Shown here: positions 3,203 to 63,201 of the stretch, piece by piece
Numbering within the stretch: the stretch's first letter is position 1
Layout of the letters: each line of letters begins with the position of its first letter
Assembly: GCA_964460615.1 (NCBI GenBank)
Contig: CAYWPX010000001.1
Location: 120,073 to 184,072 of the forward strand
Source of the DNA: an uncultured Planctomycetia bacterium
Lineage (GTDB): Bacteria > Omnitrophota > Gorgyraeia > CAYWPX01
DNA length: 64,000 bases
Reading direction: 5' to 3'
Made by a program: the position numbers and the translations under genes
The notes under the pieces: generated by a model
The model's input: the letters and a program-made list of their open reading frames with translations, nothing else
Told to the model about the DNA's origin: nothing
Databases searched by the model: none

Positions 3203-4909
3203 ATGATTATATTAGGAGTTGGAACACCTTTTTCGCATGACCCAGGAGCAGCGCTTTTGATCGATGGTGAGTTGATAGCCGCGGCTGATGAAGAGCGTTT
3301 TTCCAGGAATAAACACGCCATAAACGAATTCCCTGTTAAATCCATAAAATTTTGTCTCGCCAAAGCCGGCATCAAAGCAAGCGATGTTGAGATAGTGGCA
3401 TATCCCTGGAGCTATGCTGCCTACGAAGGAAAGATGTGGGATTTTTTTAAAAGAACCTGGTTAAGCAGGCCGAGCGATGCTTTTAAGTCTATTATAAAGG
3501 CTAAATCAAGGCATAAAGATAAGATTAAAAGACTGAATAATATCCTTTCCAGTTCAGGTATAAATCCCGATAAAGTAAAAAAATATTTTGTAGAACACCA
3601 CTTGGCGCATGCTTCAAGCGCTTACCATCTTTCGGGATTCAAGGATTCGGCTATTATGACCATGGATGCTGCCGGCGAATTTACATCAACGATGTTTGCC
3701 GAGGGTAAAGAAGGAAAGATAGCTAAAATTAAAGAATTTATATATCCGGACTCATTGGGGATGTTTTATTCGGTAGTTACAGAATATCTCGGTTTTGAGA
3801 TCAATGACGGGGAATATAAAGTAATGGGTATGGCGCCTTACGGCAATCCTGAAAAAGTGGATTTCAGTGATGTTATTAAATTTGATAAATCTGCTTACCA
3901 TGTGAATGATTTATTCACCTATTCAAGAAAAAGACATCGATATGAATCCGGCAAAATGTTCTCCAAACACATGGTCAAGATGTGGGGCCCGCCAAGGACC
4001 GGTGATGGGCTTACGGAGCCGTATATCCATATTGCTGCAGCTACTCAGAAAACTCTTGAGGATGTAACACTAGGCCTTATTGATACATATCTTGGCGATA
4101 TTCTTAAGAAGAATGGCGGGAATCTCTCTTTTGCAGGAGGTTGCGCTTTAAATGTAAGTCTGAACAGAAAACTCCTTGGCCATCCGCTTATAAAACATCT
4201 ATACGTTCAGCCTGCTTCAAGCGATGCCGGCACTCCTCTAGGGGCGGCTACATATGTAGCAAGCGAACTCGGAGAAAAGCTTAAGCCAATGACTCATGTA
4301 TACCTTGGCCCCAGCTACACAAATGATGAGATAAAAAAAGAGCTTGATAAGATAAAAGTAAAATATACCTATCACGAAGATATAGAAGAGGTAACCGCCC
4401 AGCTGCTTAGCCAGGGCCAGATAGTAGCATGGTTCCAGGGGGAGATGGAGTATGGCCCAAGAGCCCTTGGCAATCGTTCTATACTGGGGAATCCTACAAC
4501 CAAAGGCGTAAGTGACAGGATCAATGAGATAATAAAGTTCCGTGAGAACTGGAGGCCTTTCTGTCCGTCAATGCTTCCTGAATACGCAAAAGAGATCCTT
4601 GATTCGGATCATCCGGCACTTCACATGACTTTAAGCTTTAAGATAAGCGATAAATGGAAATCAAAGATACCCGAAGCGGTGCATGTAGACGGCACAATAA
4701 GACCGCAGGTGGTAGACCCTAAAACAAATCCCAAATACTACAAGCTTTTAAGCATCTTCAATAAAAAAACAGGAATACCTGTATTAATAAATACATCTTT
4801 GAATAGACGCGGCGAGCCAATGGTATGCTCCCCCAAGGATGCGATCAATATGTTCTATGGAAGCGGTTTAGAGAACCTGGTAATGGGTAATTATTTATTG
4901 AGGAAATAG
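3203..4909 (+). CDS. carbamoyltransferase, NodU/CmcH family (paralog 2)
   Basis: N-terminus MIILGVGTPFSHDPGAALLIDGE aligns with paralog 1; last ~315 aa identical to paralog 1. ORF track starts at GTG 3185; ATG 3203 chosen by alignment with paralog 1. Confidence 0.85.
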   Translation: MIILGVGTPFSHDPGAALLIDGELIAAADEERFSRNKHAINEFPVKSIKFCLAKAGIKASDVEIVAYPWSYAAYEGKMWDFFKRTWLSRPSDAFKSIIKAKSRHKDKIKRLNNILSSSGINPDKVKKYFVEHHLAHASSAYHLSGFKDSAIMTMDAAGEFTSTMFAEGKEGKIAKIKEFIYPDSLGMFYSVVTEYLGFEINDGEYKVMGMAPYGNPEKVDFSDVIKFDKSAYHVNDLFTYSRKRHRYESGKMFSKHMVKMWGPPRTGDGLTEPYIHIAAATQKTLEDVTLGLIDTYLGDILKKNGGNLSFAGGCALNVSLNRKLLGHPLIKHLYVQPASSDAGTPLGAATYVASELGEKLKPMTHVYLGPSYTNDEIKKELDKIKVKYTYHEDIEEVTAQLLSQGQIVAWFQGEMEYGPRALGNRSILGNPTTKGVSDRINEIIKFRENWRPFCPSMLPEYAKEILDSDHPALHMTLSFKISDKWKSKIPEAVHVDGTIRPQVVDPKTNPKYYKLLSIFNKKTGIPVLINTSLNRRGEPMVCSPKDAINMFYGSGLENLVMGNYLLRK

Positions 4910-5740: not shown

Positions 5741-6436
5741 ATGGAAAAAAATATTCTATCAGTTGTTATGCCGGTGTATAATGAGAAAGATACTATTCTC
5801 AAAATCGTAGACAGGGTCCTTAAGCTGGATTGCCTTAAAGAGCTTATTGTTGTTGATGACAAATCTACTGACGGGACCAGGGAGATCTTGCAGAATGCTA
5901 GATTTGATAACCGTGTTAAATTGTTACTTCATGATAAAAACACTGGTAAGGGCGGGGCATTAAGGACCGGCTTTAAAGCGGTTACAGGCTTGGTTGTAGC
6001 TATTCAGGATGCTGATCTTGAATATGATCCTAAAGAGCTGATGCTTTTGACGAGACCCATTGAAGAGGGAGTGGCAGATGTGGTTTATGGTTCAAGGTTA
6101 TCAGGGGGAATGCCTCAGAGGGTGCATCTGTTCTGGCATAAGATAGGTAACATGCTCATAACTTTCATCATGGACTTTTTGTTTAATACCACACTGACTG
6201 ATGTAGAGACATGTTATAAGGTTTTTAAGTCAGAGTATCTTAAAAATATGACAATTAAGGAGAATAGATTCGGTATCGACCCTGAGATTACAGCCAAGCT
6301 TCTTAAACAGAACCCAAGGATATATGAAGTTCCGATCTCATATTACGGAAGAAGTTTCAGTGAAGGCAAAAAGATAACCTGGCTTAACGGCTTTGAGGTT
6401 ATCTGGGCGATAATAAAGTATAGATTTATAAACTAG
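5741..6436 (+). CDS. GT2 polyprenol-phosphate sugar synthase (dolichol-phosphate mannosyltransferase-like)
   Basis: LSVVMPVYNEKDTILKIVDRV...LIVVDDKSTDGTREIL; 231 aa size and motif arrangement match DPM1/ArnC-like enzymes. Confidence 0.8.
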   Translation: MEKNILSVVMPVYNEKDTILKIVDRVLKLDCLKELIVVDDKSTDGTREILQNARFDNRVKLLLHDKNTGKGGALRTGFKAVTGLVVAIQDADLEYDPKELMLLTRPIEEGVADVVYGSRLSGGMPQRVHLFWHKIGNMLITFIMDFLFNTTLTDVETCYKVFKSEYLKNMTIKENRFGIDPEITAKLLKQNPRIYEVPISYYGRSFSEGKKITWLNGFEVIWAIIKYRFIN

Positions 6437-14504: not shown

Positions 14505-15809
14505 ATGATTAAAAATGTTGCTCCGAGAGAACTTATACAAAGCGATTTCCAAATCCTAAAATCCGCAGAAAGGCTCAATACAACTCCTGAAATTGAAGAT
14601 ATAATCTTCATGCAATCTCTGGAGGGCCGTGCCCATAATGGTGCGGGTGCTTTTCATAAGAGGTCCTATGTCAACACCTCTATAGATGATATAGTAAAGG
14701 CATTAGGCAGAAACCCCGCTTTGATCAAGTCGAAGCGCCAAGCGCTCATTGACGATATAGTCGATTATGCGAAAGCGATTATTAATGGAGAGCGCCGTGA
14801 CATGCTTATTAATGATAAAGGCTCCCCTTTTCTCGGTATCCCTGACTTTAAGACTCGTAAGGTTAATCCGCATGATATTCTTAAGGGCCTTTTTATGGGT
14901 GGCCTGAGGGATGATGCTGAGATACGTAAAACTACCGAATATAAATATAATGTCAAAGTCGGTTGCGGAAAATGCTATTTAGTCAACGCCAGGATCATGG
15001 AAAGCTTGGGCCTTGACGGTGAAATTTTAGCGCATCAGGCGCATGAGGATGATATAGAGACTTATGTGGCCAATGGTTTGATAATCAATCCCGAAAGGCT
15101 TTACGAAGCCCATGAGGATGAGATAAAATATTTTTATATAAGGCACAGAATCGGGCCCGGTCAATCTGATGATGCGGCTGTTGTGGCTAGCGGGATGATA
15201 TATAATTCCGATGTTGCTATCGGCGTATTTCTGGCTGACGCGATCGATACCCTGGAAAAGTATGCACCGAATTATTCAGACCAGGATAATGACCTTGCTT
15301 GTTATATTAAAGAAAATTATGATGCTCTTGATATCTCTTATGATGAGGTTTATGAGCTGGCTTATTTAGCGGCTATACCCGAAGGAAGAGAGGAAGAGGT
15401 TCCGGATAGTTCTATGAGGTATCTATTAACAGTCGATCCGGTAACTGGACAATCGACCATTGAAAGCCATCTGAATTTTGTAGAAGGCAGGCCGTATTAT
15501 CCTATGGCGATCAGCTATAAGAGGATCCTGATAACAGATTTTTATGATTATATAAAAGACAAGGTAAGGCGTTCCAAGGTCCCTTCCGAGAGTGAGCCAA
15601 AGGAACTTTTGATCGAGGGTTTGAATAAATCCGTAAAAGAATTAATGAAAAAGAATGTGGTAGTTGTTTCCCCGAACGTGACTCTGGAGGAAGCGCTAAG
15701 CAAGGTAAGGGATACAAGAGTTGAGATAATTGTTGTGCAGGATGCTAATAAAAAAGTTATCGGAGTTATTAATCCGGATGATTTTTTATATTTACTTAGG
15801 AGAACCTGA
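14505..15809 (+). CDS. hypothetical protein with C-terminal CBS domain
   Basis: 434 aa; N-terminal ~370 aa unrecognised; C-terminus VVVVSPNVTLEEALSKVRDTRVEIIVVQDANKKVIGVINPDDFL is CBS-like. Confidence 0.6.
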   Translation: MIKNVAPRELIQSDFQILKSAERLNTTPEIEDIIFMQSLEGRAHNGAGAFHKRSYVNTSIDDIVKALGRNPALIKSKRQALIDDIVDYAKAIINGERRDMLINDKGSPFLGIPDFKTRKVNPHDILKGLFMGGLRDDAEIRKTTEYKYNVKVGCGKCYLVNARIMESLGLDGEILAHQAHEDDIETYVANGLIINPERLYEAHEDEIKYFYIRHRIGPGQSDDAAVVASGMIYNSDVAIGVFLADAIDTLEKYAPNYSDQDNDLACYIKENYDALDISYDEVYELAYLAAIPEGREEEVPDSSMRYLLTVDPVTGQSTIESHLNFVEGRPYYPMAISYKRILITDFYDYIKDKVRRSKVPSESEPKELLIEGLNKSVKELMKKNVVVVSPNVTLEEALSKVRDTRVEIIVVQDANKKVIGVINPDDFLYLLRRT

Positions 15810-15812
15810 TTT

Positions 15813-16829
15813 ATGCCCGAGTTAAGAAAAGATCCTGTGGTAGGCAGATGGGTTATTATAGCAACCGAGCGCGCCAAAAGGCCTCAGGATTTTTCAAAAG
15901 AAGATTCAAATATTGACGATTCAGCATGTCCTTTCTGCGAGGGGAAAGAGGCATTGACCCCGCATGAGATTTTTTCATTAAGGAGCCAAGGAAATACGCC
16001 CGGATGGGATGTAAGGGTAGTTCCCAGCATCAATCCGCTTTTAGTTATTGAAGGTAAACTCAATAGGCGGCCAAAAGGCATGTATGATCTTATGGATGCT
16101 ATTGGCGCACATGAAATAGTGGTAGAAACCCCTAAACATATACACAACATGGCTGATCTTGAAGAGTCACAGATAGTAAAGGTATTTGATGTTTACCTTA
16201 ATAGGTTATCGGACTTGGAGAAAGACCATAGGTTTAAGTATGTTCTGATTTTCAAGAATTACGGGGTTGCCGCAGGGGCCGGGCCGATAAAACATTCCAG
16301 AAGCCAGCTTATTGCTACCCCGGTTAACCCAAAAAGAGTAAAAGAAGAGCTGATGGGTTCAAGGCGCTATTTTGAATATAAAGAGAGATGTGTATTCTGC
16401 GATATTATCAGGCAGGAGATAGCGGATGAGAGCAGGGTTGTTTTGGAGTCGGAAGAGTTCGTTGTGATCGCGCCGTTCGCTTCGAGATTTCCCTTTGAGC
16501 TTAATATCCTTCCTAAGAAACATTCGGCTGATTTTACAAAGATCAGCCACTCAGAGAAACTGGATCTTGCCAGGGTGCTTAAAAATACTCTGATGAAACT
16601 CAAGATCGCTCTCAATGACCCTCCTTATAATTTTGTACTTCATTCTGCTCCTTTCAGGGGATCAAGAAAACAGGGCTATTGGAAGACGGTTGACAGCGAT
16701 TATCATTGGCATATCGAAATAATGCCCAGACTTACAAGCGTAGCTGGGTTTGAATGGGGATCGGGGGTTTATATTAACCCGACTCCTCCTGAAGAAGCTG
16801 CTAAATACCTTAAGGAATTGGGGATTTAA
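15813..16829 (+). CDS. GalT-like HIT-superfamily nucleotidyltransferase/phosphorylase paralog 1 (active-site variant HSRSQ)
   Basis: CPFCEG zinc motif, second CVFCDII motif, YHWHIEI; canonical H-P-H-x-Q replaced by H-S-R-S-Q. Confidence 0.8.
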   Translation: MPELRKDPVVGRWVIIATERAKRPQDFSKEDSNIDDSACPFCEGKEALTPHEIFSLRSQGNTPGWDVRVVPSINPLLVIEGKLNRRPKGMYDLMDAIGAHEIVVETPKHIHNMADLEESQIVKVFDVYLNRLSDLEKDHRFKYVLIFKNYGVAAGAGPIKHSRSQLIATPVNPKRVKEELMGSRRYFEYKERCVFCDIIRQEIADESRVVLESEEFVVIAPFASRFPFELNILPKKHSADFTKISHSEKLDLARVLKNTLMKLKIALNDPPYNFVLHSAPFRGSRKQGYWKTVDSDYHWHIEIMPRLTSVAGFEWGSGVYINPTPPEEAAKYLKELGI

Positions 16830-16951
16830 ATGTCTTAGGGGATGAATCCCGTAAGACTATTATTGCAGGATCATAGGTTTTTTTGGATTAAATCAGCATA
16901 AGGGATATAAACAGTTTTATAAAAGCTATAATTTTATAGGAGTCTTACGGG

Positions 16952-17968
16952 ATGAATCAGTTAAGACGTGACGTTGTTACCGGCAGATGGATAATAATAA
17001 ATGTTGATGAAGATCAGACTCATTTTGATTTCTTGACTGAGCAGAGAGAGAAAAAAGGCGGGACATGCCCCTTTTGTCCCGGCAATGAAAGAATGACCTC
17101 GCATGAAATAACTGCATACGGAAGAAAAGCATATGTCCCAAATTCAGCAGATTGGACCTTGAGGGTGGTCCCAAATAAATTCCCGGCGCTAAAAATTGAA
17201 GGCGAGATAGGTAAGATCGGCGTAGGGCTTTATGATATGTCTAACGGCATAGGTGCGCATGAAGTTATAGTTGAATCTCCGGATCATAATAAGGAATTAT
17301 CAGATCTTGACATAGAAAGAGTTGAGGATGTTATCTGGTCTTATAGTGACAGATCTTTGGATCTTAGGAAAGACCCCAGATTTAAATATATACTGATCTT
17401 CAAAAATTACGGAGAACCGGCGGGGGCATCCTTAGAGCATCCGCATTCACAGGTTATCGCGCTTCCAATAGTCCCCAGCCGCGTAACTGACGAGCTGGAG
17501 GGTGCAAAAAAATATTTCGATTATAAAGAGAGATGTATCTTTTGCGATATTATTCATCAGGATATGCAGGATAAAGAACTCATTGTTACCGACAATGAGC
17601 ATTTTTTGTCATTCTGCCCTTTTGTTCCGAGATTCCCATATGAGACATGGATAATACCAAAACAGCATTCACCTGATTTTGGCTACATAACAAAAACCGA
17701 AGTCGAGAGTTTAGCCAAGATACTTAAAGAGACGCTTCAAAGAATAAAAAATCTGTTGCAAGATCCTTCATATAACTTTATAATCCATACTGAGCCTCTT
17801 AATGGCGAGGGTTCTATGTATAAGGAAAGTTACCATTGGCACATTGAAATAATCCCAAGGCTGACCAAAACAGCGGGGTTTGAATGGGGAAGCGGGTTTT
17901 ATATAAACCCGATCTCTCCTGAATATGCGGCTAAGACGTTGAGAGATGTTAAGCTGCTGAAAGAATAA
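16952..17968 (+). CDS. GalT-like HIT-superfamily nucleotidyltransferase (galactose-1-phosphate uridylyltransferase family) paralog 2
   Basis: CPFCPG, canonical EHPHSQ active-site motif, CIFCDII, YHWHIEI. Confidence 0.8.
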   Translation: MNQLRRDVVTGRWIIINVDEDQTHFDFLTEQREKKGGTCPFCPGNERMTSHEITAYGRKAYVPNSADWTLRVVPNKFPALKIEGEIGKIGVGLYDMSNGIGAHEVIVESPDHNKELSDLDIERVEDVIWSYSDRSLDLRKDPRFKYILIFKNYGEPAGASLEHPHSQVIALPIVPSRVTDELEGAKKYFDYKERCIFCDIIHQDMQDKELIVTDNEHFLSFCPFVPRFPYETWIIPKQHSPDFGYITKTEVESLAKILKETLQRIKNLLQDPSYNFIIHTEPLNGEGSMYKESYHWHIEIIPRLTKTAGFEWGSGFYINPISPEYAAKTLRDVKLLKE

Positions 17969-18048
17969 TATTTAGCGTCAATTAGCTTCAGAAAAAAAAC
18001 TTTAATGATTTCTGGATGACTGGGCGTGGGAACAGACTTTTTGTGTAG

Positions 18049-19083
<1,035 letters not shown>

Positions 19084-19090
19084 TCGGTTT

Positions 19091-19124
19091 GTACTTATTC
19101 TAAGCAAAAGCTTAGAATAAGTAC
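19091..19124 (+). other. perfect 15-bp stem hairpin just downstream of gap
   Basis: GTACTTATTCTAAGC-aaaa-GCTTAGAATAAGTAC; no T-tract follows. Confidence 0.5.
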
Positions 19125-19313
19125 TGATTACCCCGTGAGCATTGGAAAAATATTACCACCTGGAAATCCGAAGGATTACCGGGGTAGATTTTTCCAATGG
19201 GTAGCGAAACGGGGCGTTTAAGCTTCTGATTTATAAATATAGATTACTGCGAATCGACTACCCCTATATAACTAGTAGGGGTAATCAAGAGAAGGCTTAA
19301 CTATGAAAGACAA

Positions 19314-19360
19314 ATAGGGGAACTCATTTAGATATATGAATTCCCCTATTTTTTACTTTT
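19314..19360 (+). terminator. terminator-like hairpin immediately upstream of the histidine kinase gene
   Basis: ATAGGGGAA-17 nt-TTCCCCTAT followed by TTTTTTACTTTT. Confidence 0.45.
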
Positions 19361-30185: not shown

Positions 30186-30191
30186 TATAAT

Positions 30192-30256
30192 AGCTCATGG
30201 CTCGCAAGCTCATAGCTCATAGGTAAATTCCTAGAGCCCTGAACCTAGAGCCTGGG
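30192..30256 (+). repeat. heptad array (GCTCAT-type) plus duplicated CCTAGAGCC motif between the GNAT gene and leuC
   Basis: AGCTCATG GCTCGCA AGCTCATA GCTCATA; CCTAGAGCC-ctgaa-CCTAGAGCC. Confidence 0.7.
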
Positions 30257-38596: not shown

Positions 38597-38602
38597 AAAC
38601 TA

Positions 38603-38676
38603 GCGATTAGGCGATTAAGTGATTAGGTAATTAGGTAAAACCCAATCACATAATCGCATAATTACCAAATCGCTAT
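38603..38676 (+). repeat. octad-periodic imperfect inverted repeat between argJ and argB
   Basis: GCGATTAG GCGATTAA GTGATTAG GTAATTAG ...loop... CAATCACA TAATCGCA TAATTACC AAATCGC (arms reverse-complementary at about 26 of 33 positions). Confidence 0.75.
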
Positions 38677-41668: not shown

Positions 41669-41737
41669 CTGTAAGCTATAAGTTGTAAGCCGTAAGAAGA
41701 TCCAAAGATTTAAAAGCTTATTGCTTAAAGCTTATAA
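41668..41737 (+). repeat. heptad-periodic imperfect inverted repeat between argF and argG
   Basis: GCTGTAA GCTATAA GTTGTAA GCCGTAA ... AAGCTTAT TGCTTAA AGCTTATA. Confidence 0.7.
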
Positions 41738-41759: not shown

Positions 41760-42929
41760 ATGAAAAAAGTTGTTCTAGCATATTCAGGGGGCCTTGATAC
41801 TTCCTGTGCGGTAAAATGGCTGAAGGATAGAGATTATTTCGTTATCTGCTATATGGCTGATGTCGGTCAGGGCGGTAATTTTAATGAGATAAAAAAACGT
41901 GCTTTTGCCGCGGGCGCTGATAAGGTAGTGATAGAGAGTTTGCAAAAAGAGTTTGTAGAGGATTTTGCGTTCGTTTCTTTAAAAGCTGGGGCAGTATATG
42001 AATCCAAGTATTTTTTGGCGACTGCGCTTTCGAGGCCTCTTATAGGTAAAGGCTTAGTGAATGTTGCCAGAAAAGAAAAAGCTCAGGCGGTATCTCATGG
42101 ATGCACCGGGAAAGGTAATGACCAGGTAAGGATCGAGACGTCCGTCATGTCTTTGGGCGGGGACCTTGAGATAATTGCTCCCGTACGAGTGTGGGAATTT
42201 AAGACCAGAAATGAAGAGATAGATTATGCGAAAAAACAGAATATCCCGATAGATGTGACCAAAAAAAGCCCATATAGTTTAGATAAGAACCTATGGGGAG
42301 TCAGTATCGAGTGCGGTATCTTAGAAGACCCTATGGTGGAACCTCCTAAGGATGCCTATCAATGGACAAATGACCCCAAAGACGCTCCCAATAAAGAGAC
42401 TTATATTGAAGTTACTTTTGAAAAAGGCATACCTATTAAGGTCAATGGTAAATCGCTTGAACCGGTCCAGTTGGTTGAAAAGCTTAATGAGATCGGCGGG
42501 CTTAATGGTGTAGGCAGATGTGACCTCGTAGAGAACAGGCTTGTAGGAATAAAATCCAGAGAGATCTATGAAGCCCCGGCTGCATATATTCTTCACACGG
42601 CATACGAAGCATTGGAGAATCTGGTTTTAGACAGAGAGACTTTTCATTTTAAAAAGAGTTTATCTTTAAAATATGCCGAGATGGTTTATTTTGGCCTGTG
42701 GTTTACACCGCTAAAAAGCGCCTTGGACAAATTTTTTGATGAAGTTGCTAAAAAGATTAGCGGAACTACAAGGCTCAAGCTGTATAAAGGAACGTGTGCT
42801 ATCGTAGGCAGGACTTCACCGAATTCACTTTATAAAAAAGATCTTGCTACTTATGACGAAGGCGATAAGTTTGACCAGTCATTTGCCGAAGGTTTTATAA
42901 GGATATGGGGATTGCCGTATAAGAAATAG
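41760..42929 (+). CDS. argG: argininosuccinate synthase
   Basis: AYSGGLDTS PP-loop; start at ATG 41760 (track 41721). Confidence 0.9.
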   Translation: MKKVVLAYSGGLDTSCAVKWLKDRDYFVICYMADVGQGGNFNEIKKRAFAAGADKVVIESLQKEFVEDFAFVSLKAGAVYESKYFLATALSRPLIGKGLVNVARKEKAQAVSHGCTGKGNDQVRIETSVMSLGGDLEIIAPVRVWEFKTRNEEIDYAKKQNIPIDVTKKSPYSLDKNLWGVSIECGILEDPMVEPPKDAYQWTNDPKDAPNKETYIEVTFEKGIPIKVNGKSLEPVQLVEKLNEIGGLNGVGRCDLVENRLVGIKSREIYEAPAAYILHTAYEALENLVLDRETFHFKKSLSLKYAEMVYFGLWFTPLKSALDKFFDEVAKKISGTTRLKLYKGTCAIVGRTSPNSLYKKDLATYDEGDKFDQSFAEGFIRIWGLPYKK

Positions 42930-42957
42930 TTCATGGTTCATGGCTCATAGTTCATAG
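42928..42957 (+). repeat. heptad array (GTTCATG-type) overlapping the argG stop codon
   Basis: GTTCATG GTTCATG GCTCATA GTTCATA. Confidence 0.7.
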
Positions 42958-43009
42958 TTTAAAAGAACTGTGGCCAAGCGCCTGGAGCAAAACGCGGGAG
43001 AAAAAATTT

Positions 43010-48241: not shown

Positions 48242-48245
48242 ATTT

Positions 48246-48292
48246 AGCTCATAGTTCATAGCTCATAGCTGATGGCTGCGAGCTGAAAGCTT
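48246..48292 (+). repeat. heptad array pair between dapB and dapL
   Basis: AGCTCAT AGTTCAT AGCTCAT AGCTGAT GGCTGCG AGCTGAA AGCTT, ending 11 nt before ATG 48304. Confidence 0.7.
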
Positions 48293-54323: not shown

Positions 54324-54491
54324 AGCACAAGAACACATGAGCACAAGACACAGGAGTACAAGTACACAAGATCACTCGTCGCAAGTTTAAAGCTTTTACC
54401 GGTGCTCTTGTGACTGGTGCTCTGGTGACAGCAACGTTGGAGCCCTGGTGTCCTAATTATGCTGATAGCTGATTTCTGAAAACTGAAAGCT
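54324..54491 (+). repeat. composite intergenic array: 8-nt CACAAG-type units, partly complementary GGTGCTC units, then GCTGAWA heptads abutting the start codon
   Basis: AGCACAAG AACACATG AGCACAAG ACACAGG AGTACAAG TACACAAG; GGTGCTC TTGTGAC TGGTGCT CTGGTGA; GCTGATA GCTGATT TCTGAAA ACTGAAA GCT. Confidence 0.7.
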
Positions 54492-54496
54492 AAAAA

Positions 54497-55648
54497 ATGG
54501 ATAAAGTTAGACTTATTGCTACATCGACATTCGGGCTGGAAGCTATGGTTAAGCGTGAGCTTAGCAATCTCGGCTTTTATGACACGACCGGTGCTGATGG
54601 AAGAGTGGAATTCGACGCTAACTTAGCTGATATCCCGCGTTTAAATATAAATCTAAGAACTGCCGATAGAGTACTCTTAAAAATAGGTGAATTTAAAGCA
54701 TTTGATTTCGGCGAGCTTTTTGACGGGACAAAGGTACTTCCCTGGGAAGATTGGATACCTAAGGACGGTAAGATAAATGTCAGCGGTAAATGTGTCAAAT
54801 CTACTCTAATGAGTGTGCGCAGCTGTCAGTCGATAGTCAAAAAAGCTATTGTCGATAGATTAAAAGATAAATTAAAGACTGATTTGCTTCCTGAGTCTGG
54901 CCTGGAGTTTGGTATTCAGGTAGCAATGCTGAAGGATGCGGCTTTACTTACGCTAGATACTTCCGGAGCAGGGTTACACAAACGCGGCTATCGAACAGAA
55001 TCCGGTGAAGTTCCTATGCGAGAAAATCTTGCAGCTGCACTTGTAATGCTAAGTTCCTGGAAAAAAGATAAATTGCTCATAGATCCTATGTGCGGCTCAG
55101 GGACCATCCTCATAGAAGCCGCTATGATAGCCCGGAATATTGCTCCCGGATTAAAGCGTAAATTTGCCTCCGAGGATTGGCCTAAGATTGAAAAAAAGTA
55201 TTGGGACGAGGCGCGTAAGGCCGCTCGAGAGGCCATTAAGACCGAGGGGGTTTTAAATATTCTAGGTTTCGATATAGATCCGGATAGGATAAGGGATTGT
55301 AAGATTAACGCCAAAAATGCCGGAGTAGATAAGGACATAGTTTTTGAGGAAAAAGATATCAGAGAACTAAGGATAGATAAGCCGTCCGGCTATATTATCT
55401 CCAATCCTCCGTATGGTGTTGAGATGGGGACATTAAAAGAGTTGACGCATTTATATATCCTGATCCACAATATGTTTCGAAAGAAACTCGGCTGGGCAGT
55501 TTATATAATAACCGCAGATAAAAGATTTCCGGATTTTTTTAAACGCGCTAAACCTGACAGGGTAAGGAAGCTATTTAACGGTGGCCTGGAGGTAAATTAT
55601 TATCAGTATTTTGCAAAAGAGATAGAAAAGAAGGCAACTAGCTCATAG
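54497..55648 (+). CDS. THUMP-domain class I SAM-dependent RNA methyltransferase (RlmL/COG0116-like)
   Basis: N-terminal THUMP-like region; methyltransferase motifs IDPMCGSGT and ISNPPYG. Confidence 0.8.
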   Translation: MDKVRLIATSTFGLEAMVKRELSNLGFYDTTGADGRVEFDANLADIPRLNINLRTADRVLLKIGEFKAFDFGELFDGTKVLPWEDWIPKDGKINVSGKCVKSTLMSVRSCQSIVKKAIVDRLKDKLKTDLLPESGLEFGIQVAMLKDAALLTLDTSGAGLHKRGYRTESGEVPMRENLAAALVMLSSWKKDKLLIDPMCGSGTILIEAAMIARNIAPGLKRKFASEDWPKIEKKYWDEARKAAREAIKTEGVLNILGFDIDPDRIRDCKINAKNAGVDKDIVFEEKDIRELRIDKPSGYIISNPPYGVEMGTLKELTHLYILIHNMFRKKLGWAVYIITADKRFPDFFKRAKPDRVRKLFNGGLEVNYYQYFAKEIEKKATSS

Positions 55649-55711
55649 CTCATTGCTCATAGTTCATAGTAAAAGCAATAACTGAAAGCTGATAGCTGAT
55701 AGCTGAAAGCT
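55640..55711 (+). repeat. heptad array pair: (AGCTCAT)x4 overlapping the stop codon, spacer, (GCTGAWA)x4
   Basis: AGCTCAT AGCTCAT TGCTCAT AGTTCAT ...17 nt... ACTGAAA GCTGATA GCTGATA GCTGAAA GCT. Confidence 0.75.
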
Positions 55712-55986: not shown

Positions 55987-55991
55987 GAGAA

Positions 55992-56064
55992 TGGCTCATG
56001 GTTCATAGCTCATTGCTCATAGTAAAAGCAAGAACTGAAGACTGTGAGCTGAAAGCTGAAAGCT
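55992..56064 (+). repeat. heptad array pair (GCTCAT-type then GCTGAA-type)
   Basis: GGCTCAT GGTTCAT AGCTCAT TGCTCAT ... GAGCTGAA AGCTGAA AGCT, ending 8 nt before ATG 56073. Confidence 0.75.
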
Positions 56065-56072
56065 AAAAAATA

Positions 56073-56765
56073 ATGACTAAAGAAATTCTATCCAAAGATA
56101 TACCAGCACCGAAGCTTATCAGATCCCGAAGGCGAAGCATCGCCTTGGAAGTCAGGCATGACGGCACCCTTGTAGTGAGGGCGCCGCATTTTCTTCCGGA
56201 TGCCCAAATACGAGAGTTTATTAGTAAGAGGCGCGCTTGGATAGATAATGTTTATAATCGTACACGTGAGAAGTTGCAATTATTTAAACCTAAGCAATTT
56301 GTTAATGGTGAGAAATTTCTTTATCTAGGCAATGAGTATACTCTGCATATAACCCAGGATATGGACGGTAAGTTTCTTTTTGAAAACCAATTTATACTTA
56401 ATGAACGGTATATAGCTAAAGCAAAAATACTCTTTGAGCGTTGGTATAGACAAGAGGCATTTATGCTTTTTACCAAAAGATGCAAATGCTATGCTCAATA
56501 TATGAGTGTAAGCTATAAAAGTATCAGTCTATCAAATGCCAAACACCGCTGGGGTTCATGCTATCCGAATGGAGGGCTTGGATTTAATTGGCGTTTAGTG
56601 ATGGCGCCGGAATGCATTATTGATTATGTAGTTGTGCATGAATTGGCGCATCTGGTTGAGGCCAATCACTCTAAACGGTTTTGGGCGCTAGTAGAAAAAA
56701 CGTTTCCAAATTATAAAGAAGCAAAGTTATGGCTAAGGGATAATCAACATAGGCTTAAGATATAA
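56073..56765 (+). CDS. YgjP-like M48-family metallopeptidase (DUF45/SprT-like, HExxH)
   Basis: HELAHLVEANHSKRFWALVE zinc motif; 230 aa. Confidence 0.8.
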   Translation: MTKEILSKDIPAPKLIRSRRRSIALEVRHDGTLVVRAPHFLPDAQIREFISKRRAWIDNVYNRTREKLQLFKPKQFVNGEKFLYLGNEYTLHITQDMDGKFLFENQFILNERYIAKAKILFERWYRQEAFMLFTKRCKCYAQYMSVSYKSISLSNAKHRWGSCYPNGGLGFNWRLVMAPECIIDYVVVHELAHLVEANHSKRFWALVEKTFPNYKEAKLWLRDNQHRLKI

Positions 56766-56880
56766 GCTCATAGCTCATGGTTCATAGCTCATACTAGAAA
56801 TAGTACGCAGTACACTGTACAAAGTACACAGTAAAAACATTACTTGTGTTCTGGTGACTGATAGCTGAAAGCTGACGACT
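56766..56880 (+). repeat. heptad arrays: (GCTCATA)x4, (AGTACAC)x5, GCTGA-type units
   Basis: GCTCATA GCTCATG GTTCATA GCTCATA; AGTACGC AGTACAC TGTACAA AGTACAC AGTAAAA; GATAGCT GAAAGCT GACGACT. Confidence 0.75.
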
Positions 56881-62876: not shown

Positions 62877-62880
62877 AGAT

Positions 62881-63010
62881 GCTCAAGGCTCCAGGCTCTA
62901 GGGAAAAACAAAATACCGCTCCAGGTTCGGGGGTGAGTCCCCTTCGGCGAGGCTATGCTTCGCTTTGCACGGGTGAGAGGAAAACCTAGAGCTCTGAGCC
63001 TAGAGCCAAG
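62881..63010 (+). repeat. GC-rich structured intergenic element with long-range inverted repeat
   Basis: GGCTCCAGGCTCTAGGG ...~80 nt... CCTAGAGCTCTGAGCCTAGAGCC; internal GGGG-tgagt-CCCC hairpin; related motifs at 59769-59795 and 30230-30256. Confidence 0.55.
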
Positions 63011-63201
63011 AGCGGGTTTTGTGCTATATTAAATTGATGGAACAACAAAACCCTTTGTGTTATAATAAATGGTAACAGATTCGAGTAACACGGAAAGGGA
63101 ACAAGAAGCAATGGGTCTTTTTGGTAGCAAACAAAATAAAAGTATAAAGGTGAATTAATTTAAGCCGGGGATAAAATTCTCGGTTTTTTTGTTCAAAACT
63201 C

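Follow-up and report, generated by a model that had tools for sequence, protein, structure and literature searches.

A probable lineage-specific insertion between two GalT-like genes and its predicted masking of the downstream ribosome-binding site

In the RNA phage MS2, sequence of the coat gene masks the start of the replicase gene, and in bacterial operons ribosomes can re-initiate, or 'scan', after termination. In the translational attenuation of ermC and cat, the position of the ribosome on the leader peptide decides whether the ribosome-binding site (RBS) is free. The helices of the RNA thermometers ROSE and fourU are short and mismatched and melt at 30-42 °C. [quoted passage not shown] The locus described here is the junction between two adjacent GalT-like genes, denoted G1 and G2, in a stretch of 64,000 nucleotides from contig CAYWPX010000001.1 (the window, which is the whole stretch that was analyzed). 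The intergenic region is most likely a palindromic MITE-like insertion of ~110-120 nt at the stop/start junction, with a duplicated start region, that occludes the RBS of G2 on a transcript shared with G1. The descriptive part of this account, namely a lineage-specific insertion that forms an RBS-occluding hairpin and is not a sensor, is held with good confidence.

The repeat at the junction and the predicted hairpin

The genes and sequence elements at the junction are listed below by their positions in the window.

15813-16829, plus strand: G1, GalT-like, 338 amino acids, stop codon TAA at 16827-16829 (list of open reading frames (ORFs), Pfam GalP_UDP_transf/GalP_UDP_tr_C, NCBIfam galT_1)
16952-17968, plus strand: G2, GalT-like, 338 amino acids, canonical E-H-P-H-S-Q motif (ORF list, Pfam, NCBIfam, alignment)
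16832-16857, plus strand: copy 1 of a 26-nt repeat, the quasi-palindrome GTCTTAGGGGATGAATCCCGTAAGAC; this is the 'upstream hairpin' of an earlier, sequence-only reading of the DNA
16942-16967, plus strand: copy 2 of the 26-nt repeat, consisting of the spacer, the ATG, and codons 2-6 of G2
16938-16942, plus strand: Shine-Dalgarno (SD) sequence AGGAG of G2, part of the insert and separated from the ATG by a spacer of 9 nt
16830-16969, plus strand: full imperfect hairpin of 140 nt, comprising the entire intergenic region and the first 18 nt of G2 (minimum free energy (MFE) fold)
16846-16863, plus strand: anti-RBS arm, with 13 perfect and 4 more pairs to the SD, spacer, and AUG (from the fold)

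From G1 to G2 the junction reads TAA (16827-16829) ATGTCTTAGGGGATGAATCCCGTAAGAC TATTATTGCAGGATCATAGGTTTTTTTGGATTAAATCAGCATAAGGGATATAAACAGTTTTATAAAAGCTATAATTTTAT AGGAG TCTTACGGG ATG (16952) AATCAGTTAAGAC. The start region of G2 thus consists of AGGAG (16938-16942) followed by TCTTACGGG, the ATG at 16952, and AATCAG. The sequence-only reading had described a near-palindrome containing ATGAATC about 110 nt upstream of the G2 start, and the letters are as described. Its right arm had been reported as the exact reverse complement of the segment between the SD and the start codon, and this was confirmed, with CCCGTAAGAC (16848-16857) exactly complementary in reverse to GTCTTACGGG (16942-16951). The repetition goes beyond what had been described. 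The direct repeat extends over 26 nt with 22/26 positions identical (16832-16857 vs 16942-16967), 16 of the leading 17 nt are the same in both copies, and the copies start 110 nt apart at 16832 and 16942. The inverted match covers 32 nt at 78% and contains 13 perfect Watson-Crick pairs (16846-16858 : 16941-16953).

The 17-mer occurs three times in the window when up to 3 mismatches are allowed, each time at the junction, with 0.12 occurrences expected. The pattern GTCTTA-N10-18-TAAGAC is found in the two repeat copies only (0.02 expected). Pairing of the upstream 96 nt with the RBS segment gives a duplex of -22.9 kcal/mol, compared with -10.5 +/- 2.2 kcal/mol for 2000 dinucleotide shuffles, one of which reaches the native value. 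The repeat and the complementarity at the G1-G2 junction are real and not due to chance. Since the quasi-palindrome is present as a direct repeat, the pairing between copies 1 and 2 follows arithmetically; because the pairing is such a by-product, its non-randomness demonstrates a duplication or insertion event and not selection for an RNA switch.

The MFE fold of 16825-16975 is one long hairpin of -41.7 kcal/mol (z = -4.64), and at the exact coordinates 16830-16969 the energy is -40.6 kcal/mol. Copy 1 lies in the 5' arm, and the SD, spacer, and AUG of G2 are found in the 3' arm together with its codons 2-6. The outer paired segments are 16830-38:16961-69, 16841-43:16956-58, 16846-58:16941-53, and 16860-63:16936-39, and an inner AU-rich helix is formed by 16867-89:16913-35. 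The SD/AUG region is predicted to be base-paired at 16941-16953 and 16936-16939. The probability of being unpaired is at most 0.05 for A16941-U16953; at 16939-16943 it is 0.33, 0.94, 0.05, 0.00, and 0.00, respectively. When the two arms were treated as separate molecules (16828-16866 and 16934-16972), the intermolecular duplex was calculated at -37.1 kcal/mol.

Opening of 16936-16957 costs ~18 kcal/mol. For the start region of G2 from -16 to +6 the cost is 18.3 kcal/mol, which ranks fourth among 64 crudely called genes of the window (median 6.5 kcal/mol); the three genes above G2 have GTG or TTG starts and are possibly miscalled. On a G1-G2 co-transcript, the computation shows the SD, spacer, and AUG of G2 to be held closed in the predicted fold at any physiological temperature. 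With these elements closed, G2 would be poorly translatable by free 30S subunits.

Copy 1 alone folds into a local hairpin at -13.8 to -15 kcal/mol, and copy 2 alone forms only a weak hairpin of -3.9 kcal/mol. It had been proposed that the upstream hairpin either folds on itself or pairs with the initiation region, in mutually exclusive structures. Both structures exist among the computed folds, they exclude each other, and the pairing covers the SD and AUG, but the equilibrium is wholly one-sided. When the region was folded for alternatives, the long-range helix was obtained with a probability of ~1 and the local hairpin with a probability of ~0. The best structure that retains the local hairpin lies 10 kcal/mol above the MFE. 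The long-range helix has a predicted probability of 1.0 from 15 to 55 °C, which declines to 0.999 at 65 °C and to 0.994 at 75 °C, and the local hairpin one of ~0 across 15-75 °C. During transcription the local hairpin is the first structure to form and its existence is brief; the barrier for refolding of the co-transcriptional intermediate to the final fold is 6.3 kcal/mol. A figure of 19.4 kcal/mol for this barrier was obtained when refolding began from a structure that is not realistic. The possibility that the local hairpin is kinetically trapped was considered as well and is ruled out by the barrier of 6.3 kcal/mol from the realistic intermediate. Since the refolding barrier is low, the two exclusive structures do not constitute a balanced switch, and switching at this hairpin would have to be driven from outside, for example by a ribosome or a nuclease.

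The junction hairpin is not a riboswitch, an RNA thermometer, or an attenuator. The likeness to these classes, which the sequence-only reading had drawn, is not supported, in view of the one-sided equilibrium, the low barrier, and the lack of an Rfam match, of a U-tract, and of conservation. At E<=10, the Rfam search of 15000-18500 returned only a sub-threshold match to a plant miRNA (23.9 bits vs a gathering score of 80), and no match was obtained for the whole window at the gathering threshold. A structure conserved upstream of the orthologues, as expected of a riboswitch, was not found; the region is missing from 11 of 14 related loci, and the other 3 contain unrelated sequences. The SD and AUG are paired in the predicted fold, as in a thermometer, and no melting in the physiological range is predicted, the helix remaining paired up to 75 °C. 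For an attenuator, a U-tract would be required after the local hairpin; the hairpin ends at 16857, the letters after it are UAUUAUUG, and the U7 run begins at 16879, 21 nt farther on. A terminator scan of the intergenic region predicted none, and there is no usable terminator. No early-forming antiterminator was found either, as the sole competitor of the local hairpin lies 84-110 nt downstream. A cis-acting RNA sensor that toggles between the local hairpin and the RBS pairing is thus highly improbable: the structures are mutually exclusive and one of them includes the SD and AUG, but the gap of ~10 kcal/mol leaves the local hairpin at a probability of ~0 from 15 to 75 °C, the refolding barrier is just 6.3 kcal/mol, neither an Rfam match nor a U-tract terminator is found, the competing strand 84 nt downstream would be made too late for termination at the local hairpin, and the entire region is absent in relatives.

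The length of the same helix bears on processing by RNase III, which would separate the messages of G1 and G2; a cut would either inactivate the G2 mRNA or free its RBS and could give the paralogues differing mRNA stabilities. Approximately 29 pairs are predicted over ~34 nt per arm, which exceeds the ~20-bp helix required at minimum, and the composite helix spans more than two turns with only small internal loops. Co-transcribed hairpins of the Correia inverted repeats are bound and cleaved by RNase III (PMC2649163, PMC10969869), and the many long intercistronic hairpins without U-tracts in this genome would suit general processing. However, cleavage of the 3' arm would hit the SD-AUG-codon 6 segment, probably with loss of the message, and the hairpin lacks conservation. 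Processing by RNase III at this site is therefore regarded as unlikely.

The junction in related loci and the origin of the insert

The best relatives are metagenome-assembled genomes labelled Candidatus Omnitrophota or Omnitrophica, and the order CBS-G1-G2-GAPDH is conserved in loci of the Omnitrophota type. The closest relative, designated L071 and taken from a Logan assembly of ERR7850084, has a G2 of 81% identity, and its gene order matches that of the window from TPR to TIM (TPR-fmt-CBS-G1-G2-GAPDH-HK-PGK, in which HK is a histidine kinase). The gap between G1 and G2 in L071 is 3 nt (GGAGATTTAAAAGATGAACCAG; GGAGATTTAA AAG ATGAACCAGTTAAGA), and the alignment of the window with L071 contains a single clean gap of 119 nt, between TTTAAA and GATGAA. 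A short junction, ranging from a 4-nt overlap to a 16-nt gap, is present in 11 of 14 related loci (L071, L002, L003, L004, L022, L049, L072, L073, L074, L075, and the contig carrying P0004), with gaps of 15-16 nt in L074 and the P0004 contig. Since most relatives have the short junction, the compact junction is ancestral; the intergenic region of the window is then a lineage-specific insertion, and the complementarity is not conserved. Absence of the complementarity in related genomes had been named beforehand as grounds for abandoning a regulatory switch, and neither the closest relative nor 10 further related loci have the region. In most relatives, where the genes abut, G1 and G2 are presumably coupled in translation.

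The junctions of the remaining three loci, L001 (114 nt), L005 (141 nt), and L027 (89 nt), are related neither to that of the window nor to each other. Each contains a long hairpin with arms of 8-9-nt units that stops short of the RBS of G2, located at 2886-2978 in L001, ~1283-1381 in L005, and ~2900-2960 in L027, with energies of -47.9, -40.8, and -25 kcal/mol, respectively, for the stretches tested. A T7 run comes after the hairpin of L001. With the window included, insertions arose independently in four of 15 loci, which suggests that the junction is a hotspot or that uncoupling of the paralogues was selected for.

Searches for closer relatives gave a best identity of 62% in the genome scan and 59% in the metagenome scan. 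The protein database contains one relative at 81%, with the next at 64%, and a search for fragments with the N-terminal 100 amino acids returned none above 55%.

Two inverted ends delimit the insert.

16848-16858, plus strand: left end resembling a terminal inverted repeat, CCCGTAAGACT, preceded by ATGAAT (16842-16847) (sequence, inverted match)
16941-16951, plus strand: right end resembling a terminal inverted repeat, AGTCTTACGGG, followed by ATGAAT (16952-16957) (sequence, inverted match)

The block can be written as ATGAAT [CCCGTAAGACT ... 104 nt ... AGTCTTACGGG] ATGAAT, with perfect inverted ends of 11 bp and a 6-bp duplication. By definition, a MITE measures <500 bp, carries inverted repeats of 4-30 bp, is bordered by direct repeats, and gives transcripts that form stable stem-loops (PMC10969869). 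The block agrees in size and ends: it is 104 bp long (16848-16951) and its perfect ends measure 11 bp, or 13 bp when the adjoining AT is included. ATGAAT flanks both ends, and the repeat runs 10 nt farther (GTCTTAGGGG / GTCTTACGGG), which resembles the right inverted end. No copy of the insert or of its ends was found in phage, plasmid, and viral collections; the plasmid matches were limited to 35 nt of Bacillus plasmids at E = 0.009, which is noise.

The insert brought its own SD sequence. The G2 start ATGAATCAGTTAAGAC is ancestral coding sequence (MNQLRR), with ATGAACCAGTTAAGAA in L071 and GAATTAAGAC in L074. Copy 1 (ATGAATCCCGTAAGAC) matches the ancestral G2 start ATGAA(T/C)CAGTTAAGA, as found in L071, at 13/16 positions, and its start lies 12 nt past the G1 stop, the position expected of a start codon in a compact junction. 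Three adjacent differences between the copies (CCG vs AGT) are exactly those that improve the palindrome of copy 1. A template-switch (fold-back) origin, which we infer from these letters only, would also fit the CCG/AGT differences. A decayed tandem duplication of 110 bp was rejected, as 16858-16941 and 16968-17051 are no more alike than shuffles (global score -14 vs -4.5 +/- 8; local score below the shuffle mean).

The same layout would be expected of a selfish or neutral palindromic insertion, MITE-like or made by fold-back or duplication, with no regulatory role. The pairing would then be a by-product, and G2 would be expressed from an internal promoter or by ordinary ribosome traffic. The absence of the region from the closest relative and most others, the inverted ends with the ATGAAT duplication (which fit MITE features; PMC10969869), the unrelated hairpins acquired independently at this junction in L001, L005, and L027, the abundance of intercistronic hairpins in the genome, and a TATAAT within the insert (16927-16932) are all in line with this explanation. 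It is nevertheless considered less likely than not, since a helix of 18 kcal/mol that covers the SD and AUG can hardly be expected to leave an intact, conserved gene unaffected, the promoter scan of the intergenic region is empty, the direct repeat of 17-26 nt exceeds the 6-bp duplication that the MITE model needs, and no second copy appears in the 64 kb, the related loci, or the phage, plasmid, and viral collections.

The palindromic symmetry could also act in the DNA itself. GalR loops DNA at the gal operators. The two copies might likewise be a pair of 26-bp palindromic operators looped by a dimeric regulator, or the inverted repeats might bound an invertible 82-bp segment that carries the SD and a -10-like box. 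The putative operators, GTCTTAnGGGAT-GA-ATCnnnTAAGAC, have centers 110 bp apart, which corresponds to ~10.5 helical turns. The palindrome of copy 1 has a 12-2-12 arrangement, the two copies lie on the same face of the helix, and inversion of 16859-16940 between the 13-bp perfect inverted repeats would replace AGGAG with AATAATAG before the start. A role at the DNA level is very unlikely, however: the half and full sites in the 64 kb number 8 vs 7.4 expected, with all exact matches at the junction, the right half of copy 2 is ordinary conserved coding sequence (L-R-R), an operator pair in a single lineage would need a pre-existing regulator, and 82 bp is very short for synapsis by a recombinase.

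A possible route to translation of G2

Two short reading frames follow the G1 stop codon.

16830-16838, plus strand: mini-ORF ATG TCT TAG (M S *), which abuts the G1 stop (TAAATG) (from translation)
16842-16901, plus strand: relic start ATGAATC and 19-codon ORF MNPVRLLLQDHRFFWIKSA*, which runs through the anti-RBS arm (from translation)

G1 and G2 are taken to share one transcript because their adjacency is conserved in relatives and neither a promoter nor a terminator is predicted between them. The sigma-70 promoter scan of the intergenic region predicted none; TATAAT at 16927 is not accompanied by a -35 box. The downstream RBS is predicted to pair with an upstream segment of the same transcript, an arrangement characteristic of translational coupling. 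The anti-RBS arm begins 17 nt past the G1 stop, extends to 34 nt, and lies inside the ORF 16842-16901, whose ATG16842 is located 3 nt after the mini-ORF ATG TCT TAG. When 16812-16841 was held open, as by a ribosome at the G1 stop, the SD helix persisted. When 16836-16865 was held open, as by a ribosome on the relic ORF, the RBS was left only in the hairpin of -3.9 kcal/mol.

From these folds a working model can be formulated. Ribosomes that finish G1 would re-initiate at the relic start AUG16842. A ribosome crossing the 19-codon ORF would melt the masking arm and leave the real RBS in the weak local hairpin, and the melted arm would provide a time window for binding of a 30S subunit to the G2 RBS. 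The net outcome would be a structure-enforced translational coupling of G2 to G1 that involves no sensing of ligand or temperature. That the hairpin is relieved in this manner, by ribosomes arriving from G1 and reading the relic ORF, is put forward tentatively, as the leading possibility.

Several points weigh against an insertion of MITE type whose hairpin closes the G2 start and is opened by ribosomes from G1. The closest relative in the collections searched has a protein identity of 81% and lacks the region, which leaves the reading with no comparative support. A simple model of inverted repeats plus target duplication does not account for the sequence GTCTTAGGGG that precedes the first ATGAAT. 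No second copy of the insert occurs in the 64-kb window or in 72-75 related loci, so that within this range the multiple copies characteristic of MITEs were not found. The source is probably a metagenome-assembled genome, which bears on the assembly of the junction. AUG16842 has no properly spaced SD (GGGG abuts it), and its use assumes re-initiation after termination. Finally, the TATAAT at 16927-16932 lies in the AT-rich insert; if it served as an unpredicted promoter, the transcripts would lack the arm and the hairpin would be irrelevant.

G1 and G2 belong to the galactose-1-phosphate uridylyltransferase / HIT superfamily according to Pfam and NCBIfam, and they share 46% identity. The closest solved structure to G2 is that of the Arabidopsis At5g18200 protein (1Z84, E = 2e-71). 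In the alignment, G1 has K-H-S-R-S-Q at the position of the H-P-H of G2. Across the window and L071-L075, all six aligned G1 orthologues have K-H-(S/T)-R-(S/I)-Q and all six G2 orthologues have E-H-x-H-S-Q; G1 and G2 are adjacent in 15/15 loci, and the H-x-R / H-x-H pairing is confirmed in the six aligned lineages. We take the second histidine of H-x-H to be the catalytic nucleophile of the GalT-like enzyme family. This residue is replaced by Gly in PDB 2H39 and is missing from G1, which from its sequence may be a non-catalytic partner subunit.

The nonsynonymous divergence (dN) from L071 is 0.13 for G2, 0.15 for G1, and 0.13 for the CBS gene; synonymous divergence (dS) from L071 is saturated, and no dN/dS ratio was calculated for this reason. 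Relaxed selection on G2 was rejected, as its dN is no higher than that of its neighbors. Because G2 is intact, retains H-x-H, and has a dN no higher than its neighbors, it is evidently still expressed.

A broader proposal is that the broken stop-to-start junction was rebuilt as a ribosome-gated device, in which the old start now heads an ORF whose sole purpose is to melt the RBS-masking arm. Such a device could preserve the one-to-one production of the H-x-H and H-x-R proteins, for example as a heterodimer, and would be one case of a wider habit of junction hairpins in the Omnitrophota. This proposal is speculative and is judged improbable as a whole.

Neighboring genes, other hairpins, and comparison with known systems

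The genes of this neighborhood in the window are PriA, TPR (on the minus strand), fmt, a CBS-domain protein, G1, G2, GAPDH, the histidine kinase, and PGK. The CBS gene (14505-15809) is separated from G1 by 3 nt in the window, and in L071 (1664-4001) the CBS gene, G1, and G2 are separated by gaps of 3 nt. This spacing suggests that the three genes CBS, G1, and G2 are tightly coupled as one unit, with GAPDH, PGK, and TIM downstream. The intergenic region of 277 nt between GAPDH and the histidine kinase (19084-19360) contains a perfect 15-bp hairpin at 19092-19127, a structured stretch at 19130-19215 (ACCCCG...CGGGGT...) for which no Rfam match was found, and a terminator-like hairpin with a T-run, AAATAGGGGAACTCAT..ATGAATTCCCCTATTTTTT (19312-19356), with a counterpart in L071 at 6231-6266. 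Elsewhere in the window, a direct repeat with a spacing of 1858 nt is found at 2095-2394 / 3953-4252 and at 1621-1920 / 3479-3778. One 300-nt block of this repeat is 99% identical and the adjoining block is 70% identical, as might result if paralogous genes had recently been duplicated in tandem or had undergone gene conversion.

At least 10 long hairpins are located between co-directional genes of the plus strand of the window, at the upstream stop codon or a few nucleotides past it.

30190-30255, plus strand: periodic-arm hairpin
38601-38675, plus strand: periodic-arm hairpin
41670-41736, plus strand: periodic-arm hairpin
42926-42990, plus strand: periodic-arm hairpin
48245-48292, plus strand: periodic-arm hairpin
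54334-54428, plus strand: periodic-arm hairpin
55639-55711, plus strand: periodic-arm hairpin
55991-56068, plus strand: periodic-arm hairpin
56765-56833, plus strand: periodic-arm hairpin
62881-63013, plus strand: periodic-arm hairpin

The arms of these hairpins are tandem arrays with a period of 7-8 nt, each with a complementary array on the opposite arm. The heptamer (A/T)AGCTCA is present in seven of them, and most have no U-tract. The strongest hairpin of the window (62878-63016, -56.7 kcal/mol) has outer arms of heptamers (GCTCAAG... / ...CCTAGAG) and a GC-rich core, CCGCUCCAGGUUCGGGGGUGAGUCCCCUUCGGCGAGGC.... No Rfam match was obtained for the periodic-arm hairpins, and the literature on intergenic repeats of the Omnitrophota gave nothing relevant. 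They could be an undescribed family of intercistronic elements.

If the account of the junction is correct, it provides a natural example of coupling that was re-created by secondary structure after an insertion had broken the stop-start junction, and it implies that one duplication of a start region is enough to create a regulatory hairpin that occludes an RBS. The junction also serves as a caution: where an upstream hairpin is complementary to a start site, the match may have been left by an insertion and need not indicate a sensor. The junction hairpin is found in a single genome and is not conserved. Possibly more notable are the abundant periodic-arm hairpins, the repeated occurrence of insertions at the G1-G2 junction, and the conservation of paralogues with H-x-R and H-x-H as a pair.

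The junction hairpin resembles the periodic-arm hairpins in that it starts at 16830, immediately after a stop codon that ends at 16829, lies between co-directional genes, and is imperfect and within their range of 60-140 nt. L001, L005, and L027 carry hairpins of the periodic kind at the same junction. The arms of the junction hairpin are not built from tandem units of 7-9 nt, however (Tandem Repeats Finder (TRF) found no array in 16830-16969), and its 3' arm overlaps the downstream start.

With the hairpin-sequestered RBS of ermC and cat, the junction shares a short ORF upstream of the masked site. It differs in having neither the four-segment 1:2/3:4 arrangement nor a known stalling signal, in being intercistronic and not a leader at the 5' end, and in being unconserved. 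Pairing of both the SD and the AUG is shared with the ROSE and fourU thermometers, but the junction hairpin is predicted to remain paired to 75 °C.

In common with the bacterial MITEs, the insert is ~100 bp long and AT-rich, has perfect inverted ends of 11-13 bp, is flanked by a direct repeat, separates co-directional genes, and would form a long stem-loop when transcribed. Unlike them, it was found as a single copy with no family, partner transposase, or similarity to a known element, and its direct repeat of 17-26 nt exceeds a normal target duplication and itself holds a copy of the inverted end. As in RBS occlusion of the MS2 type, a downstream SD and AUG are locked by an upstream segment, and only translating ribosomes would open the helix. 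The masking segment here lies outside the upstream gene, in a putatively translated relic ORF of 19 codons, and the device is a recent insertion in one lineage instead of a conserved design. The G1-G2 junction hairpin is thus a new example of known things, namely MITE-like intercistronic hairpins and RBS occlusion with translational coupling.

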